NCBI GenBank assembly: GCA_001873435.1
Contig: MNZB01000004.1
Location: forward strand, 239,538 to 303,537
From: Candidatus Pacebacteria bacterium CG2_30_36_39
GTDB taxonomy: Bacteria; Patescibacteriota; Microgenomatia; UBA1400; PJMF01
Direction of reading: 5' to 3'
DNA length: 64,000 bases
Under the pieces are notes generated by a model, which did no database searches, was not told where the DNA came from, and worked only from the letters and a program-made list of their open reading frames with translations. How positions within the stretch are numbered: position 1 is the stretch's first letter; each line of letters opens with the position of its first letter. Made by a program: the position numbers and the translations under genes. This document shows positions 1,607 through 55,806 of the stretch, one piece after another.

Positions 1607-2227
1607 TTATTTACTTCCAAAATATGGTGCTGTAACCAACAAGGTTGCTTCTAACGACTTTTGTCCTCGATTGTCTTCTGTTGAAAAAGTAATTCTATCA
1701 ACCACAAAACTTCTTCTAGAGTTTCTTAATCCCTCCACAAAACCACGAATAGAATTATATGAACCAACAACAGTTAGCTGAACAGGCATCGCCTTTCTCT
1801 CTAGCTCTGCCAATGAAGAATTTGGCTTAGGATCTGGTGGCAAGTCTAATAAAGTTAGATTATTAATTACTAAGTCTTGTTCACTTGCTACCAACTCAAT
1901 TATTTTTAAAGTTTGAGTTACTTTGGCCCCCAAGGGTAAAGCCTCGCTCAATACCGGCAAGCGCTGTTCTACACCAAGATATTGTGCTTGAGCTGTTGTT
2001 AAAGCAGCCACTTTTTGTGCCATTTGAGTATTGAGCTTTCTCTTATCTTCAATTTCTTTAATTAGTTCTGACATTGTTAATAAGGTTGGCCTAATAGCAA
2101 AAACTGCAAAGAAAATTACCACTGAAATTGAAAGAAATAATTCAAATGAAACAATTGCAACTGGATTGTGATAAAAACTATCCAATAACTGTGCCAATTG
2201 TTCTTGTCTAGTATTTTTTGGTGGCAT
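1607..2227 (-). CDS. pilO: Type IV pilus inner-membrane assembly protein, PilO-like.
   Basis: 206 aa with a short cytoplasmic N-terminus, one TM helix, then a coiled-coil/periplasmic domain. There is a 1-nt gap to pilN. Confidence 0.55.
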   Translation of the reverse strand: MPPKNTRQEQLAQLLDSFYHNPVAIVSFELFLSISVVIFFAVFAIRPTLLTMSELIKEIEDKRKLNTQMAQKVAALTTAQAQYLGVEQRLPVLSEALPLGAKVTQTLKIIELVASEQDLVINNLTLLDLPPDPKPNSSLAELERKAMPVQLTVVGSYNSIRGFVEGLRNSRRSFVVDRITFSTEDNRGQKSLEATLLVTAPYFGSK

Positions 2228-2228
2228 A

Positions 2229-2819
2229 TTATTTTTTGTTACCCGTGGGAACTACCTTTTGCGTTACTTCCTCTTTAGTTGAAGCCGTTAATTGAAAAAC
2301 AAATCCAGAGGCTTGGGTTCCATCAGACTCTATTGTGCTTACTGATACGTTATGGAATTTTGGTGAGATCTGCAAATTATTAATTAAAACATTCAATGAT
2401 TTTTGTGATATCACCGTACCCTTTATTGCTATCTTATCAACATAAATTACCAATTCATCTAATTTTATCCCTGTTGGAATTACCTCAGCCAATGCCGGAA
2501 ATGTATCAACAATGTTTTCTTCTTGTTCTATTTGTTGATATTGAGATAAGCGCTCCTGCACATCTCTAAGCCTAACTTCAAAATCTCCAAATGACTTAAT
2601 AACGGCTTCTTTTTGAAACAAATCTCTATTTAAATCTGTCACCTGACGATCAAGATAAAAACGAGTAACAAAACTCAAAACAACTATCAACTCTGTAAAC
2701 ATTACAATGTAACGTCCAGCAGAAAGAGCCCACTTCAAGCCACGACCCAAGAGAGTCTCAAAAAAAGGATCTTTTGGAACTAAATTAATATCAATAGTAG
2801 CTGTTTTTTTAGCTGGCAT
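2229..2819 (-). CDS. pilN: Type IV pilus assembly protein PilN.
   Basis: The N-terminal 'IDINLVP' matches the conserved PilN INLLP PilM-binding motif. It is followed by one TM helix and a periplasmic domain, 196 aa in total. Confidence 0.65.
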   Translation of the reverse strand: MPAKKTATIDINLVPKDPFFETLLGRGLKWALSAGRYIVMFTELIVVLSFVTRFYLDRQVTDLNRDLFQKEAVIKSFGDFEVRLRDVQERLSQYQQIEQEENIVDTFPALAEVIPTGIKLDELVIYVDKIAIKGTVISQKSLNVLINNLQISPKFHNVSVSTIESDGTQASGFVFQLTASTKEEVTQKVVPTGNKK

Positions 2820-4640: not shown

Positions 4641-4955
4641 ATGCCTATCTTACACAATGCAAAAAAAGCCTTAAGAGTTAGTAAGAAAAAAACTACTCGC
4701 AATAAAGTTACTAAATCACGCACTAAATCTGCCGTGGATAAAGTCAAGAAAACTCCAACCATGGAATTCTTAGCTGCTGCTTACTCTGCTATCGATAAAG
4801 CCGTTAAGAAAAATATTTTTCATGCGAACAGAGCTGCTCGCTTGAAAACTCAATTAGCCAAACTAGTTAAGCCAGCTAAAATCGAAAAAAAAGTTGCTCC
4901 TAAAAAAGCCGTGAAAACTGCTCCTAAAAAAGCAACCAAAAAAGCTGCAAAGTAA
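4641..4955 (+). CDS. rpsT: 30S ribosomal protein S20 with a K/A-rich histone-H1-like C-terminal extension.
   Basis: 'MPILHNAKKALRVSKKKTTRNKVTKSRTKSAVDKVKK...FHANRAARLKTQLAKLV' matches the S20 consensus. The C-terminus is 'KPAKIEKKVAPKKAVKTAPKKATKKAAK'. The start is taken at the ATG at 4641, internal to track ORF 4584. Confidence 0.8.
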   Translation: MPILHNAKKALRVSKKKTTRNKVTKSRTKSAVDKVKKTPTMEFLAAAYSAIDKAVKKNIFHANRAARLKTQLAKLVKPAKIEKKVAPKKAVKTAPKKATKKAAK

Positions 4956-11240: not shown

Positions 11241-11358
11241 TTCTGGCCTCGACCTATCTTCGCGTCCCAACGAGGGGATACTATTGTCGGCGCTGAGGCG
11301 TTTCAAGACTCTGTTCGGGATGGGAAGAGTTGGTTCCACCTCGCTCCGGAGACCAGAA
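11241..11358 (-). rRNA. rrf: 5S rRNA.
   Basis: The reverse complement reads '...GGUGGAACCACUCUUCCCAUCCCGAACAGAGUCUUGAAACGCCUCAGCGCCGACAAUAGUAUCCCC...'. This matches the conserved 5S loop B/C/helix III-IV consensus, and the terminal helix UCUGGUCUC/GAGGCCAGA closes it. Confidence 0.85.
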
Positions 11359-11467
11359 TAAAACGCTTTTTGTTAATTTTAGGTTATGTTCCCTAAAAGG
11401 TGAAGAGAAATTGTCATCTGCCAGTAAAAAATTGAGAATTCATTTTTAACGCATCTTTATATACTAA

Positions 11468-14378
<2,911 letters not shown>

Positions 14379-14584
14379 AATTAGCGAAATTTGCATTTTT
14401 TTATAAATTCTCGACGAATTTACTATTAGATGACATATCTCTTCACTTTTTAAAGAACAATTCTAAACAAGAAGCTTCCGCTCCTTGTTGTTCGCCCCGA
14501 GTAGTCAAGATTTCTCTCAAAAACCCATGAACGAATAACAAAAAGCCGATCTTAGTTATTCTTGTTTATGTTAATTTGCTTCTG

Positions 14585-14658
14585 TGGACCCTAAGGGGCT
14601 CGAACCCTTGGCCTCTACATTGCAAATGTAGCGCTCTAGCCAACTGAGCTAAGGGCCC
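14585..14658 (-). tRNA. tRNA-Ala (anticodon UGC), immediately upstream of the 23S rRNA.
   Basis: The reverse complement is GGGCCCTTAGCTCAGTTGGCTAGAGCGCTACATTTGCAATGTAGAGGCCAAGGGTTCGAGCCCCTTAGGGTCCA. It forms a cloverleaf, the anticodon loop is TTTGCAA, and the Ala-identity G3:U70 pair is present. Confidence 0.9.
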
Positions 14659-46374: not shown

Positions 46375-46449
46375 ACAAACTATTCTCTAGAAATTGATTA
46401 AAACCAGGTTATAATAAGAAATCTTATTGAAAGTATTTAATAGGAAAAT

Positions 46450-46522
46450 GCGTGCGTAGCTCAATCGGCAGAGCTCCAAGCTTATACCTTGGTGGTTCTA
46501 GGTTCAAGTCCTAGCGCACGCA
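46450..46522 (+). tRNA. tRNA with anticodon UAU (tRNA-Ile(UAU)-type, decoding AUA).
   Basis: GCGTGCGTAGCTCAATCGGCAGAGCTCCAAGCTTATACCTTGGTGGTTCTAGGTTCAAGTCCTAGCGCACGCA folds as a canonical cloverleaf: acceptor stem 7 bp, D stem 4 bp, anticodon stem CCAAG/CTTGG with loop C-U-UAU-A-C, T stem 5 bp with TTCAAGT. CCA is not encoded. Confidence 0.8.
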
Positions 46523-46563
46523 CCCAAAGTAATTTAAAAGACTATAATTTAAAACGAATAAAT

Positions 46564-52654: not shown

Positions 52655-54991
52655 TTATAACCTAGCTCTTACCTGAATCTCAGCTTCCACCACTTCTCTA
52701 TCCTTACCGTATTTGAGTCTAGAAAGTTGTTTCACCATTTCCGCAAGCTTTGGATTCATACGAGCCTTAACAGCATCCATATCTTTTTCTAAAGACATAC
52801 TGAAGGCTGGAACAGGCTCATTATTAACAATAGTTTTAATATATACATGGAATTTCTCAACATTTGTTAAGTCATTTTCAGTGAATGTTGGAGTAAATTC
52901 ATGTTGCAAGAAATTTGCATCTGTCACGCCAACACGGAAAGAAACTATAGTTCCAACGTTACCAAAAACAGCATTCTTAACTTCTTCATCTATCTGACCA
53001 ATAAACTGATTAGCAACAATCAAATTCAACTTATATTTACGGGCCTCAGAAAGAATGGTAGCAAAATCCTCAGTAGCATAGTTTTGAAACTCATCTACAT
53101 ATAAGAAAAAGTCAGTACGTTGATCCATAGGAATATCCTGGCGACTCATGGCAGCAGTTAAAACCTTAGGCACTAAAATCAAACCCAAAAACTTAGCATC
53201 TTCTTCTCCCAAAATACCTTTGGATAAGTTACATAAGATAATTTTCTTTTCATCCATTGCTTTGCGGAAATTAAAAGCACTATAAGGCTGACCGATAATA
53301 TTACGCATTGTCTTATTCGTAACAAATCTACCAAACTTAGAAACAATGTAATCTAAAACTTCTGATTTATGAAAGTCACTTGTTTGAGCCATTTGATCAG
53401 TCCAGTAGCGTTTGACCACTGGGTCTTTAACAAAGGGCAAAAGTTCTTCAACAAACTTTTGATCAGTTAAAGCACGCACTAATTCGATAAAAGTAGTTCC
53501 TTCACGGGACATAATCGTTAACATAGCATTACGAATTGCATGTTCAAAACGGGGACCAATAATACCAGTACGATGTGGATCATAAAGCTTATACATCAAG
53601 CCAATAACAGAACTAACCACAAAATGGCGCTGCTCTTCGCTATCAGCTTCCATCATGTTTAAGCCCATAGGTCTAGTTAAATCTGAAGGATTAAAATAAA
53701 TAATATCTTCTGCTCTCTCTGGTGGAACTAGCTGTAAAATATCTTCCACAAACTCGCCATGAGGATCAATGGCGCAAACTCCTTGGCCATTTTCAATATC
53801 CTGCATAATCATTTCTTTTAGAAACTCGGATTTACCAGTACCAGTCTTACCAATGATATACATATGGCGCTGACGATCTTTAAGATTCATATAGACATTG
53901 CGAATATCACCGCGGTAGATAGATTTACCCAAAAACAATCCTTTGGTAGGAATTAAATTTGGAGCCGGAGCGTTTTTGGCTGTTAACCATTTAATATGAT
54001 GAGTTTCAACTGTTTTATTTGGGAAATGGAATATTGTTGCCAATTCCTCAGTGTTCAAAATACAGGTACCAAAATTAAATAAGGGCATATATCGATAAAT
54101 AAAATCAATCATGAAAAGATGTTTAATAAAAAACCAAGGTTTTTTAAACTCATTGTAGGCAGAAGAAAACTGAGCAAATGCTCCAGTTAGATTACTCAAA
54201 TGAGAATCAGCATCAACATCCTTTGGCGAAGAAACAACCATTCTAATTGAAACGCGGAAACCTGGTTTCTCAACCTTGGTTGTGATTGCTTCCATTTCTT
54301 TTGGATCATGACCGTAGGTAGCTTTTTGAGGATCAGCCTCTCTCTTTTTCTCGTTTTTAATGTAATTTCTACCTTTTTTCTGCCAACCATTACCTTCTGG
54401 ATAAATTAAGATTTGTAAAATAGCTCCATCACCATCCCCCATCTTAGAGAAACCAGAAGTAATTAAAGAAAGACCATCTGTTGGCAAATCTTTGTAGGTT
54501 TTAATTGGCAAATAGTTGGCTTGTTTAAATTTCAAAGAAGTAAAGGCAACTCGACCTTTTTCATTAAAAATATTTACCTCATCCTGTTCCTTAATATCTG
54601 CAAATGGATAAGCTCCATGAATTTGTTTCTCAACCAAATCTCTAATCCTTTTTGTACAACTAACATAAAAAGAGATTTCTTCCTTTAAGCCAACAATTTC
54701 AAAACTAATTAATTCTTCTGGCTGTAAAAATGAAAATAGACCATATTTTTTTAATGAGTGTAATCCAGCAAACATCTGTTCTGCTGCATCGATTTTAATT
54801 TCATTGTCCTTTGGAAGACGAACCAAGAGGGTGACAAAGTCTAGAGAATAGTCTTCTCGCTTTCTATGCTTAAACCACTGGAAAAATGTATATCCCAAAA
54901 AGGATAGGGCAATTAATAGAATAATTACTAGAAAAAAATTCATGAAAAACAACGAGGCTTGAGTAATAAAGTTGGCTGAACCAAAGGTCAC
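52655..54991 (-). CDS. Type IV coupling-protein-like P-loop ATPase (VirD4/TraG/TraD family-like).
   Basis: N-terminal TM helix. Walker A 'IIGKTGTGKS' is followed by 'AIDPHGE'. The C-terminal 'YVDEFQNYATEDFATILSEARKYKLNLIVANQFIGQI' is a Walker B/T4CP-type block. 778 aa. Confidence 0.65.
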   Translation of the reverse strand: MTFGSANFITQASLFFMNFFLVIILLIALSFLGYTFFQWFKHRKREDYSLDFVTLLVRLPKDNEIKIDAAEQMFAGLHSLKKYGLFSFLQPEELISFEIVGLKEEISFYVSCTKRIRDLVEKQIHGAYPFADIKEQDEVNIFNEKGRVAFTSLKFKQANYLPIKTYKDLPTDGLSLITSGFSKMGDGDGAILQILIYPEGNGWQKKGRNYIKNEKKREADPQKATYGHDPKEMEAITTKVEKPGFRVSIRMVVSSPKDVDADSHLSNLTGAFAQFSSAYNEFKKPWFFIKHLFMIDFIYRYMPLFNFGTCILNTEELATIFHFPNKTVETHHIKWLTAKNAPAPNLIPTKGLFLGKSIYRGDIRNVYMNLKDRQRHMYIIGKTGTGKSEFLKEMIMQDIENGQGVCAIDPHGEFVEDILQLVPPERAEDIIYFNPSDLTRPMGLNMMEADSEEQRHFVVSSVIGLMYKLYDPHRTGIIGPRFEHAIRNAMLTIMSREGTTFIELVRALTDQKFVEELLPFVKDPVVKRYWTDQMAQTSDFHKSEVLDYIVSKFGRFVTNKTMRNIIGQPYSAFNFRKAMDEKKIILCNLSKGILGEEDAKFLGLILVPKVLTAAMSRQDIPMDQRTDFFLYVDEFQNYATEDFATILSEARKYKLNLIVANQFIGQIDEEVKNAVFGNVGTIVSFRVGVTDANFLQHEFTPTFTENDLTNVEKFHVYIKTIVNNEPVPAFSMSLEKDMDAVKARMNPKLAEMVKQLSRLKYGKDREVVEAEIQVRARL

Positions 54992-55806
54992 TTCTTTTCC
55001 TCCTCAAATCGATAAACTACTTTACCAGAAAAAATCTTCATTACTTTGTGGCTCCATTCTACTAGCCAGCGAATGCTAAAACGAGGGTTCTTATGAGCTC
55101 CCTGCTTTTCTATTTCTGGTGTAATTGGCAAAACAACCACTGGTTGAGACGGATATTGATGATCATTTGGTTGAGTTTGTGAACCATCAGCAATCACAAT
55201 TTCCTGGGGGGCTGTTTCTTGGTGTTGTTCAACTTTTTGTAAATAGCTCTCAACTTCTGGGGGAATTTCTGGACTTGGCTCAACCTCAACTTGTTGAGCT
55301 CCCCTTGCTGCATCGATAGCTATTTGCTCAAGAGAAACATTTTTTGTAGCTTCTTTACCACCAATTGATGAAACAGATTTTGGATTCAAAGTATCAGTAG
55401 CGTCCCTAATCACTTGGGGCATTACCTGAGAAATTAAGCCCGTTTGATCTTCAGTTGAGTTTTCTTGAACAATTGGATCTTTAGGCAAAGATTGTTTATC
55501 AACCAAACCAACCAAAGCATCCAGAGCAGAATCTCCACTGTCTTCTAAATTTAGATCATCACGATGAGTTTCTACCGAAGCAATCGCTTGATCCAAAACA
55601 TCCAAATCAACGGCCTGATCTATTGGAGTTGTTGGTATTAAAACTTGATCTTGAACAACATTTGAGTTGACTACTTGAGGGGTTGTGGCACTATTTGCAG
55701 CTGACCCCTGCATTCCCCTTCTCAACAAACTCCCAATCGTAGATTGTTGATTAGCAACAAAACGACCGGCCATTCCCGTTGATGTTTGGGCAGGGTTATC
55801 AGACAC
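54988..55806 (-). CDS. Acidic, Q/S/P-rich disordered protein with a structured C-terminal ~60 aa (hypothetical). It is translationally coupled to the ATPase.
   Basis: Its start overlaps the stop of the upstream ATPase by 4 nt (ATGA). Low-complexity N-terminus; C-terminal '...RFSIRWLVEWSHKVMKIFSGKVVYRF'. Confidence 0.45.
   Translation of the reverse strand: MSDNPAQTSTGMAGRFVANQQSTIGSLLRRGMQGSAANSATTPQVVNSNVVQDQVLIPTTPIDQAVDLDVLDQAIASVETHRDDLNLEDSGDSALDALVGLVDKQSLPKDPIVQENSTEDQTGLISQVMPQVIRDATDTLNPKSVSSIGGKEATKNVSLEQIAIDAARGAQQVEVEPSPEIPPEVESYLQKVEQHQETAPQEIVIADGSQTQPNDHQYPSQPVVVLPITPEIEKQGAHKNPRFSIRWLVEWSHKVMKIFSGKVVYRFEEEKK

Follow-up and report, generated by a model that had tools for sequence, protein, structure and literature searches.

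The stretch of DNA analysed here, hereafter the window, comprises 64,000 nucleotides of contig MNZB01000004.1 of Candidatus Pacebacteria bacterium CG2_30_36_39, and carries on its minus strand the two adjacent genes that are the subject of this work. One encodes a P-loop ATPase and the other, which precedes it, a smaller acidic protein that we refer to as the partner; the pair is called the module. Both open reading frames (ORFs) had been called in a first-pass annotation made from the sequence alone, and their coordinates proved exact and agree with public gene calls (Table 1). The identical ATPase is on record from 'Candidatus Pacebacteria' metagenome-assembled genomes (MAGs), which identifies the window as Patescibacteria chromosome. 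Among 5.8 billion proteins searched, 7,007 homologues of the ATPase were scored at E ≤ 1e-5, so that both ORFs are far beyond chance. The start codon of the ATPase gene and the stop codon of the partner gene overlap by 4 nt as first described, but the letters of the overlap are GTGA and not ATGA (junction sequence GAGGAGGAAAAGAAGTGA), with a strong Shine–Dalgarno (SD) sequence, GAGGAGG, located 7 nt 5' of the GTG start. In related loci, which comprise 42 loci from GTDB species representatives (Pacebacteria, Woesebacteria, Levybacteria, Microgenomates and Dojkabacteria-like genomes) and 80 further metagenome loci, this junction is mostly an overlap or a gap of <30 nt. The partner would be made in step with the ATPase via translational coupling. 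Promoter and terminator scans of the locus returned matches below shuffle expectation and added no information.

Annotation covered nearly every window ORF of 110 aa or more, either by Pfam/NCBIfam scans or through precomputed Pfam matches on matching contigs, and no VirB4, VirB6, VirB8, relaxase or integrase was found among them. The reported absence of VirB4, relaxase and other type IV secretion system (T4SS) genes was confirmed in this way, and the ATPase is correctly labelled an orphan in this window.

Table 1 Features of the two-gene locus (window positions; residue numbers refer to the encoded protein)
Feature	Position	Strand	Details
ATPase gene	52655..54991	minus	778 aa; ORF list and same product in public gene calls (identical contigs)
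Transmembrane (TM) helix, single, N-terminal	54881..54949	minus	residues ~15–37; sole segment >1.6 in hydropathy scan
N-terminal domain of ATPase, Pfam DUF8128, VirB4-N-terminal-domain-like fold	53957..54859	minus	residues 45–345
Motor domain	52772..53956	minus	residues 346–740
Walker A	53828–53851	minus	within motor domain
All-helical insert of motor domain	residues ~445–582	minus	eight helices at ~452–580 in the AlphaFold2 (AF2) model
Walker B	53081–53101	minus	within motor domain
ARKYxLNLxxANQ motif	53006–53044	minus	within motor domain
Conserved C-terminal helical tail of ATPase, LSRLKYGKDREVVEAEI	52658..52771	minus	residues 741–778
Translational-coupling junction	54988..55005	minus	SD GAGGAGG 55005–54999; GTG start 54991–54989; TGA stop 54990–54988
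Partner gene	54988..55806	minus	272 aa; ORF list and same product in public gene calls (identical contigs)
Conserved C-terminal block of partner	54991..55290	minus	residues 173–272; alignments
Amphipathic basic Trp helix of partner, RWLVEWSHKVMKIF	55030..55071	minus	residues 246–259

Domain architecture and lineage of the ATPase

The ATPase belongs to the Pfam DUF8128-containing ATPases of Patescibacteria, a family of ~780–1,100 aa proteins with the domain set DUF8128 (PF26449), DUF87 and TrwB_AAD_bind; PF26449 was found precomputed on P0001, which is the identical protein, and on every homologue listed. Giant relatives of 1,400–2,000 aa carried TPR repeats only or no extra domain. The AF2 model of the ATPase (mean pLDDT 86.9) was divided into four parts, namely a long N-terminal helix (residues 5–50), an alpha/beta domain (45–345), a RecA-type motor and a helical tail. 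The TM helix is followed by KHRKRED, which implies a cytoplasmic location for the rest of the protein. Between the TM helix and the motor lies a domain of ~300 aa with the fold of a VirB4 N-terminal domain, a feature that the first-pass annotation had overlooked. The motifs that it did report, GKTGTGKS (residues 381–388), AIDPHGE (407–413) and YVDEFQN (631–637), are all in place, and each is invariant in a family alignment of 78 sequences. The C-terminal tail is nearly invariant at L756, S757, R758, Y761, G762, D764, E769, E771 and R775, and its identity amounts to 79% in a close subset of homologues and 46% in a distant one.

Profile comparisons were used to place the motor among its relatives. 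Pfam TrwB_AAD_bind (PF10412) matched residues 367–668 with an E value of 6e-9 and 35.7 bits (cut-off 20.5), and DUF87 matched residues 354–447 only, around Walker A. The VirD4-like CD1115 model NF045973 aligned with residues 370–686 at 38.8 bits, far under the model's 250-bit cut-off, the VirB4 model TIGR00929 scored 16.8 bits (cut-off 643; E 0.0015), and a sequence search of the PDB returned Walker-A-level matches only. When the family profile was compared by hhalign, plasmid coupling proteins were aligned with a probability of 100 (E 1e-42 to 5e-46) over 646–685 columns that included the N-terminal domain. The corresponding probabilities were 94% for TrwB (E 1e-7), 88% for an Embleya VirB4, 3% for a B. 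subtilis plasmid VirB4 and 1% for TrwK.

A tblastn search of PLSDB identified homologues on 402 plasmids, 51 of them with at least 80% query coverage at ~25% identity; the plasmid hosts include Streptomyces, Bacillus, Staphylococcus, Clostridium, haloarchaea and Sulfolobus. The homology to the coupling proteins of monoderm (MPF_FATA-type) conjugation operons extends over the full length of the ATPase, including most of the N-terminal domain, with the same domain order. Examples are annotated as 'DUF87 domain-containing protein' (CP120602.1, NZ_CP032854.1) or 'type IV secretory system conjugative DNA transfer family protein' (NZ_CP108778.1). In both B. subtilis plasmids the homologue stands at the head of a conjugation region. 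In NZ_CP032854.1 the gene directly after it encodes a 'replication-relaxation' relaxase, and then come a conjugal transfer protein, TcpE, an ATP-binding protein of 848 aa that we took for VirB4, and another, large conjugal transfer protein. In CP120602.1, TcpD- and TcpE-family genes and conjugal-transfer genes follow at a distance of a few kb. In Embleya NZ_CP108778.1, PrgI and a second, VirB4-like ATP-binding protein precede the homologue, which is followed by a relaxase and an NlpC/P60 hydrolase. Such plasmid coupling proteins thus adjoin genes for relaxase, TcpE/PrgI (VirB3-like), a separate VirB4 and VirB6-like proteins, whereas the ATPase of the candidate phyla radiation (CPR) is unlinked from all of them. 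The CPR ATPase also differs from its plasmid relatives in being chromosomal and much more conserved and in having its own acidic partner, no counterpart of which was found upstream of the plasmid genes.

Taken together, the Pfam, plasmid and hhalign evidence places the ATPase in the lineage of type IV coupling proteins (T4CPs), in a monoderm subgroup with a VirB4-type N-terminal domain, and the original description of the protein as T4CP-like was borne out. Sequence comparison shows its nearest relatives outside the phylum to be relaxase-adjacent coupling proteins from monoderm (MPF_FATA-type) conjugation operons, a setting that the CPR clade of the ATPase has left. This lineage fits a published proposal that the Patescibacteria T4SS descended from monoderm conjugation machinery. 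Features expected of a T4CP were found in the form of an FtsK-HerA-superfamily motor with T4CP-type Walker A and B motifs, an all-alpha insert in the nucleotide-binding domain and an N-terminal TM anchor; association with relaxase or T4SS (Mpf) genes was found neither in the 64-kb window nor at the 42 + 80 related loci. With VirB4 the ATPase shares the VirB4-type N-terminal domain and the order of this domain and the ATPase domain. Sequence profiles nevertheless keep it out of VirB4 (such as TrwK of R388 and T. pseudethanolicus VirB4), as it falls outside the VirB4_CagE and CagE_TrbE_VirB profiles, and VirB3, VirB6 and VirB8 genes are lacking beside it in the window and at related loci. Patescibacteria moreover have a separate bona fide VirB4, exemplified by SEML1_0008 in S. 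epibionticum.

Two other members of the superfamily had to be considered as models for the ATPase. The FtsK/SpoIIIE proteins, like TcpA and EccC, are membrane-anchored hexameric translocases of the same superfamily, and a housekeeping chromosome translocase acting in division or segregation would be in keeping with the membrane anchor and FtsK-HerA-superfamily motor, the extreme conservation and the housekeeping neighbourhood, which includes GyrB/GyrA in Saccharimonadia-type loci. Yet the Pfam FtsK_SpoIIIE profile scored 20.4 bits, under its 24-bit cut-off, in the Walker A region only, and hhalign gave E. coli FtsK a probability of 26% over 76 columns, again confined to Walker A. The alpha and gamma domains and the 4-TM N-terminus of FtsK/SpoIIIE are also missing, and S. 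epibionticum has a separate canonical and essential FtsK, SEML1_0096 (4TM + alpha + motor + gamma; Wang et al. 2023, Tables S1/S2). A role of this kind is therefore very unlikely in our view. Literature mentions of FtsK in CPR were incidental only.

The PADLOC search raised the possibility of a HerA-type ATPase of an anti-phage defence system. Its best match was mad8 of the MADS defence system (E 1.7e-17, residues 351–673), with HerA and DndH matching at Walker A. As the mad8 score exceeds that of any Pfam T4CP match, mad8 may itself be a T4CP/HerA-type motor. The N-terminal domain is VirB4-like and not a HAS barrel, the partner has no enzymatic domain, and no nuclease, Sir2 or methylase accompanies the module, which is universal, single-copy and set in a housekeeping context. 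Defence genes are not normally the most conserved of their locus, nor essential, and we consider a defence function extremely improbable.

Conservation and inheritance of the module

The ATPase occurs in one copy per locus with 51–92% identity across the 42 GTDB loci, and the best 120 of the 7,007 homologues are all ~778 aa long and 77–100% identical; the wider superfamily, plasmid relatives included, amounts to 5,677 clusters at E < 1e-30 (50%-identity representatives). Over 41 species loci, the ATPase is in almost every case conserved above every shared neighbour, as in L013, where the ATPase stands at 80% identity, an ABC ATPase at 69%, the permease of the latter at 72%, Pth at 51% and LGT at 47%. 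Close relatives share the entire gene order. In distant relatives the flanks have been replaced by other housekeeping genes (ribonucleotide reductase, PheT, RNase P, SmpB, Maf), and the lineage-specific housekeeping flanks also include LGT, DUF192, MFS and GyrB/A. This pattern of conservation and gene order points to vertical inheritance under strong purifying selection, and the ATPase and its partner thus form a core module of Patescibacteria chromosomes that is strongly conserved and passed on vertically. Conservation of the module is phylum-wide and the module is probably essential, two aspects that had escaped the initial annotation.

An earlier suggestion was that the ATPase is the orphaned coupling protein of a decaying conjugative plasmid or integrative and conjugative element (ICE). 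Its closest non-CPR relatives are indeed plasmid coupling proteins beside relaxases, and no other T4SS gene lies nearby. A remnant would hardly be expected to be the most conserved gene of its neighbourhood, single-copy, with invariant catalytic motifs, embedded among housekeeping genes and in a synteny common across genera; in addition, no integrase is present in the window, the GC content around the module is flat (0.33–0.36), the sole tRNA within 6 kb is separated from it by five conserved genes, and the probable orthologue SEML1_0142, discussed below, is essential. Conservation and synteny refute the ICE-remnant reading, to which we attach next to no probability.

Several records deserve separate mention. 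In four metagenome loci (L131, L135, L136 and L140; 42–44% identity) a second paralogue of ~825 aa lies immediately upstream of the ATPase instead of the small partner and shares the LSRLKYGRD..VE.E tail, giving tandem duplicated ATPases that may relate to the published average of about two T4CP homologues per Patescibacteria genome. Many module-bearing MAG records (L008, L010, L016, L018 and others; P0031, P0047) are labelled 'uncultured Pseudomonadales bacterium', 'Pseudomonadales bacterium' or 'Vitreimonas sp.', which look like taxonomic mislabels of Patescibacterial sequences. Lastly, the 922-aa PheT (beta chain of phenylalanyl-tRNA synthetase) encoded at 4693–7461 of L056 shows a match to the NLPC_P60 peptidase domain, an odd fusion.

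The partner protein

The partner is acidic, with 39 D/E against 22 K/R, and its commonest residues are V, Q, S, A, E, D and P. Scans against Pfam, NCBIfam and PADLOC returned no match for it, it has no hydrophobic segment (max KD19 0.55), and a VirB3/PrgI-analogue membrane protein was ruled out by the lack of a TM segment. Homologues range from 114 to 377 aa, with a fast-evolving N-terminal part. The initial view of an acidic and disordered protein holds as regards acidity; the protein is not merely disordered, for its acidic and weakly conserved N-terminal ~170 aa are followed by a conserved C-terminal block of ~100 aa, with the successive motifs EPxPEIPPEVExYLQKVE, PQEIVIADG, PVVVLPIT and S[IV]RWLVEW..K..K.F.GKV.YR. 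The last of these includes an amphipathic basic helix with the highest hydrophobic moment of the protein (muH 0.65; median 0.24) and a Trp that is invariant in 22 diverse partner sequences. The C-terminal 47 aa carry a net charge of +4 and the remainder −21. In the most distant loci only this last element is kept, as 'S..WL' and a basic hydrophobic helix.

The partner is the sole constant neighbour of the ATPase across related loci, in agreement with the single partner initially proposed. Nearly every copy of the ATPase gene has a partner of this kind before it. An upstream partner-type gene with the Trp-helix motif, strictly defined, was found in 32 of 38 GTDB loci. Among 50 evaluable non-tandem metagenome loci, 42 have a small ORF ending between −100 and +130 nt from the ATPase start; 31 of these ORFs show the strict Trp-helix pattern, and several others have a basic amphipathic helix that departs from it. 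A profile search with the C-terminal block retrieved 45 short unnamed proteins, none with a Pfam domain.

We infer that the Trp helix is a docking or membrane-binding element, and a tether of the partner to the membrane through this amphipathic helix is possible. It bears what we take to be a resemblance to the membrane-targeting helices of FtsA/MinD type, and the combination of a basic C-terminal signal with an acidic body presumably resembles T4SS substrate signals.

Proposed correspondence with a gene pair scored essential in S. epibionticum

Published data on the cultivated Saccharibacterium S. epibionticum offered a link between the module and an essential function. In the transposon-sequencing (Tn-seq) study of Wang et al. 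2023 the T4SS of this organism was found to be essential, and was stated to lack 'recognizable coupling and relaxase proteins', while the competence gene comEC was dispensable. SEML1_0142, whose 1,019-aa product is annotated as 'TraM recognition domain-containing protein' (PMC10633639), is essential in the same data (ES/ES/ES; 114 input insertions reduced to 11, 11 and 9). It has a P-loop domain at 381–800, preceded by ~310 aa (residues 71–380) without an assigned domain, and belongs to a core, Patescibacteria-enriched family. SEML1_0141, an unannotated ORF of 139 aa located 12 nt upstream, went from 9 input insertions to 0. Neither gene is mentioned in the main text of that study, and our full-text literature searches found no other mention of SEML1_0142, nor of DUF8128.

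The gene order in S. epibionticum is SEML1_0138 (YifB, minus), 0140 (117 aa, DUF2178-like), 0141, 0142 and 0145 (gyrB). Two Saccharimonadia-type members of the DUF8128 family are found in comparable surroundings. P0442 (994 aa; 35% identity to the window ATPase over 820 residues; 336 members in its 90% cluster) lies in the order YifB(−), a 121-aa polytopic membrane protein, a 210-aa acidic protein with the C-terminus ...NSRWDYMKKVFNRD, the ATPase, GyrB and GyrA. P0155 (1,116 aa; 38% identity over 805 residues) lies in the order PheS, PheT, a 136-aa acidic partner, the ATPase, GyrB and GyrA. SEML1_0141/0142 thus show the layout of a small ORF followed by the ATPase, in a gene order as in the DUF8128 members of L060 and L061. 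SEML1_0142 differs from the window ATPase in being ~240 aa longer, owing to a C-terminal extension, and in its weaker Pfam matches. Based on the match between the P0442 order and SEML1_0138/0140/0141/0142/0145, we propose orthology, by which the module would be linked to ESSENTIALITY as the orthologue of SEML1_0141/0142, both essential in Tn-seq.

A second T4CP-like gene, SEML1_0293, encodes a 921-aa protein with PF10412, lies behind rpoS without a small partner and is non-essential (PMC10633639). The two T4CP-like genes of S. epibionticum therefore behave in opposite ways in Tn-seq, 0142 being essential and 0293 dispensable, and a later survey (Quinonero-Coronel et al. 2025) names only the non-essential one. 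Orphan T4CP homologues in CPR are already known as a phenomenon. No description of the N-domain fold, of the partner or of the split into two paralogue classes was found in our literature searches.

Proposed function

On the strength of its lineage, conservation and inferred orthology, we regard the module as a vertically inherited, essential, T4CP-derived translocase that probably provides the 'missing' coupling motor of the Patescibacteria T4SS, a proposal that we rate about as likely as not. It comes close to the translocase with a substrate adaptor that was among the roles suggested by the first-pass annotation. The ATPase would assemble as a membrane-anchored hexamer, like TrwB and VirB4, and its VirB4-type N-terminal domain may let it join an inner-membrane platform of VirB3/VirB8 type. 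The C-terminal helix of the partner may dock on the ATPase or the membrane, with the C-terminal tail of the ATPase, its N-terminal domain and the membrane as candidate sites, and the acidic tail of the partner could serve as an adaptor, as a regulator or as the substrate itself. In this capacity the ATPase would couple substrates to, and energise, the chromosomal, relaxase-less T4SS of Patescibacteria.

A number of points weigh against this proposal. Classical T4CPs usually have two TM helices. Compared with TrwB, VirD4, DotL and Cag-beta, the ATPase has one TM helix, not two, is linked to neither a relaxase nor a T4SS, and has an additional 300-aa VirB4-NTD-like domain between anchor and motor. 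No T4SS gene lies in the flanks of the module at the 42 + 80 related loci. Orthology with SEML1_0142 is suggested by synteny, length, annotation and domain layout, not by sequence, and the apparent essentiality of SEML1_0141 may stem from polarity on 0142. Lastly, the survey of Quinonero-Coronel et al. 2025 listed 5,713 VirD4-type homologues, of which only 148 lie near virB4, distributed over 2,918 of the 3,035 genomes of Patescibacteria, and found VirB4 in 2,417 genomes, fewer than carry a T4CP homologue. Because T4CP homologues outnumber VirB4 in this manner and so few lie near virB4, the ATPase may work without a T4SS.

The main rival explanation builds on these figures. The module could be an autonomous, exapted translocase that has ceased to work with a T4SS, a self-contained membrane motor that, for instance, exports or imports protein or nucleic acid alone or with another envelope machine, with the partner as adaptor or anchor. 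This would account for a module that is never linked to T4SS genes in the loci examined, for the wider distribution of T4CP homologues than of VirB4 in the phylum and for an ATPase with its own TM anchor and a dedicated partner; the survey authors, who reported the T4CP homologue of S. epibionticum as non-essential, also leave exaptation possible. The same authors note, however, that T4CPs are often encoded away from virB4, and MAG incompleteness could account for genomes that seem to be without VirB4. The VirB4-type N-terminal domain suggests docking to a VirB3/VirB8-type platform, and no other candidate channel is encoded beside the module. We therefore view an autonomous translocase as a serious possibility of lower probability than the coupling motor.

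A bolder version of the coupling-motor proposal may be entertained because T4CPs are nucleic-acid translocases, the inferred orthologue of the ATPase is essential and comEC is dispensable. According to a 2026 preprint, host RNA serves as food for a cultivated Patescibacterium; its uptake mechanism is described there as 'unresolved', with T4SS-like tubes at the interface. The module might accordingly be imagined as a phylum-wide essential inner-membrane motor that imports host RNA/DNA or other macromolecules via the relaxase-less T4SS; we consider this speculative and rather unlikely. The conjugative single-stranded DNA pump would then run in reverse as a feeding device, and the acidic, DNA-like partner might gate or prime the pore, a notion that we hold just as tentatively.

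Other features of the window

The remainder of the window is occupied by genes for PilN/PilO, MurJ, S20, LepA, S1, ABC transporters, an amino-acid kinase, MFS transporters, LGT, DUF192, a GH3 enzyme, Pth and an ATP-dependent DNA ligase, by a long polysaccharide/glycosyltransferase region, and by 23S and 5S rRNA genes and two tRNA genes. The PilO-/PilN-like type IV pilus assembly genes lie beside MurJ at the window edge (1607–2819, minus strand) and are the window's only envelope-machine component. The polysaccharide block (~17000–41000) includes two Wzy_C/O-antigen-ligase-like proteins, WecG, a carbamoyltransferase, an epimerase and a radical-SAM enzyme, and has the lowest GC content of the window (0.27–0.31).

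A tRNA-Ala(TGC) gene is clustered with the 23S and 5S rRNA genes at 11241–14658 (minus strand). No 16S rRNA gene is present upstream, the adjoining genes being an unannotated ORF and that for ribosomal protein S1, so that the rRNA genes appear to be unlinked. At 46449–46526 on the plus strand we identified a tRNA-Ile with the anticodon TAT (UAU). In most bacteria AUA is read by a lysidine-modified CAU tRNA, and the presence of tRNA-Ile(TAT) suggests that this genome may lack TilS.

Conclusions

The ultra-small Patescibacteria, which live at the expense of host cells, account for a large part of bacterial diversity, and the findings bear on how they transport material across the envelope. What is new here is a T4CP-derived ATPase with a VirB4-type N-terminal domain, together with a previously undescribed partner, the two being fixed in Patescibacteria as a core and probably essential module of the chromosome. 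The ATPase family is of interest as an intermediate between VirB4 and VirD4, whose N-terminal domain gives a concrete hypothesis for docking to the T4SS. The essential paralogue, with its architecture and partner, gives a testable handle on how exchange with the host is powered, and in a relative amenable to genetics the module offers two defined genes as a target for studying what powers the epibiotic lifestyle.

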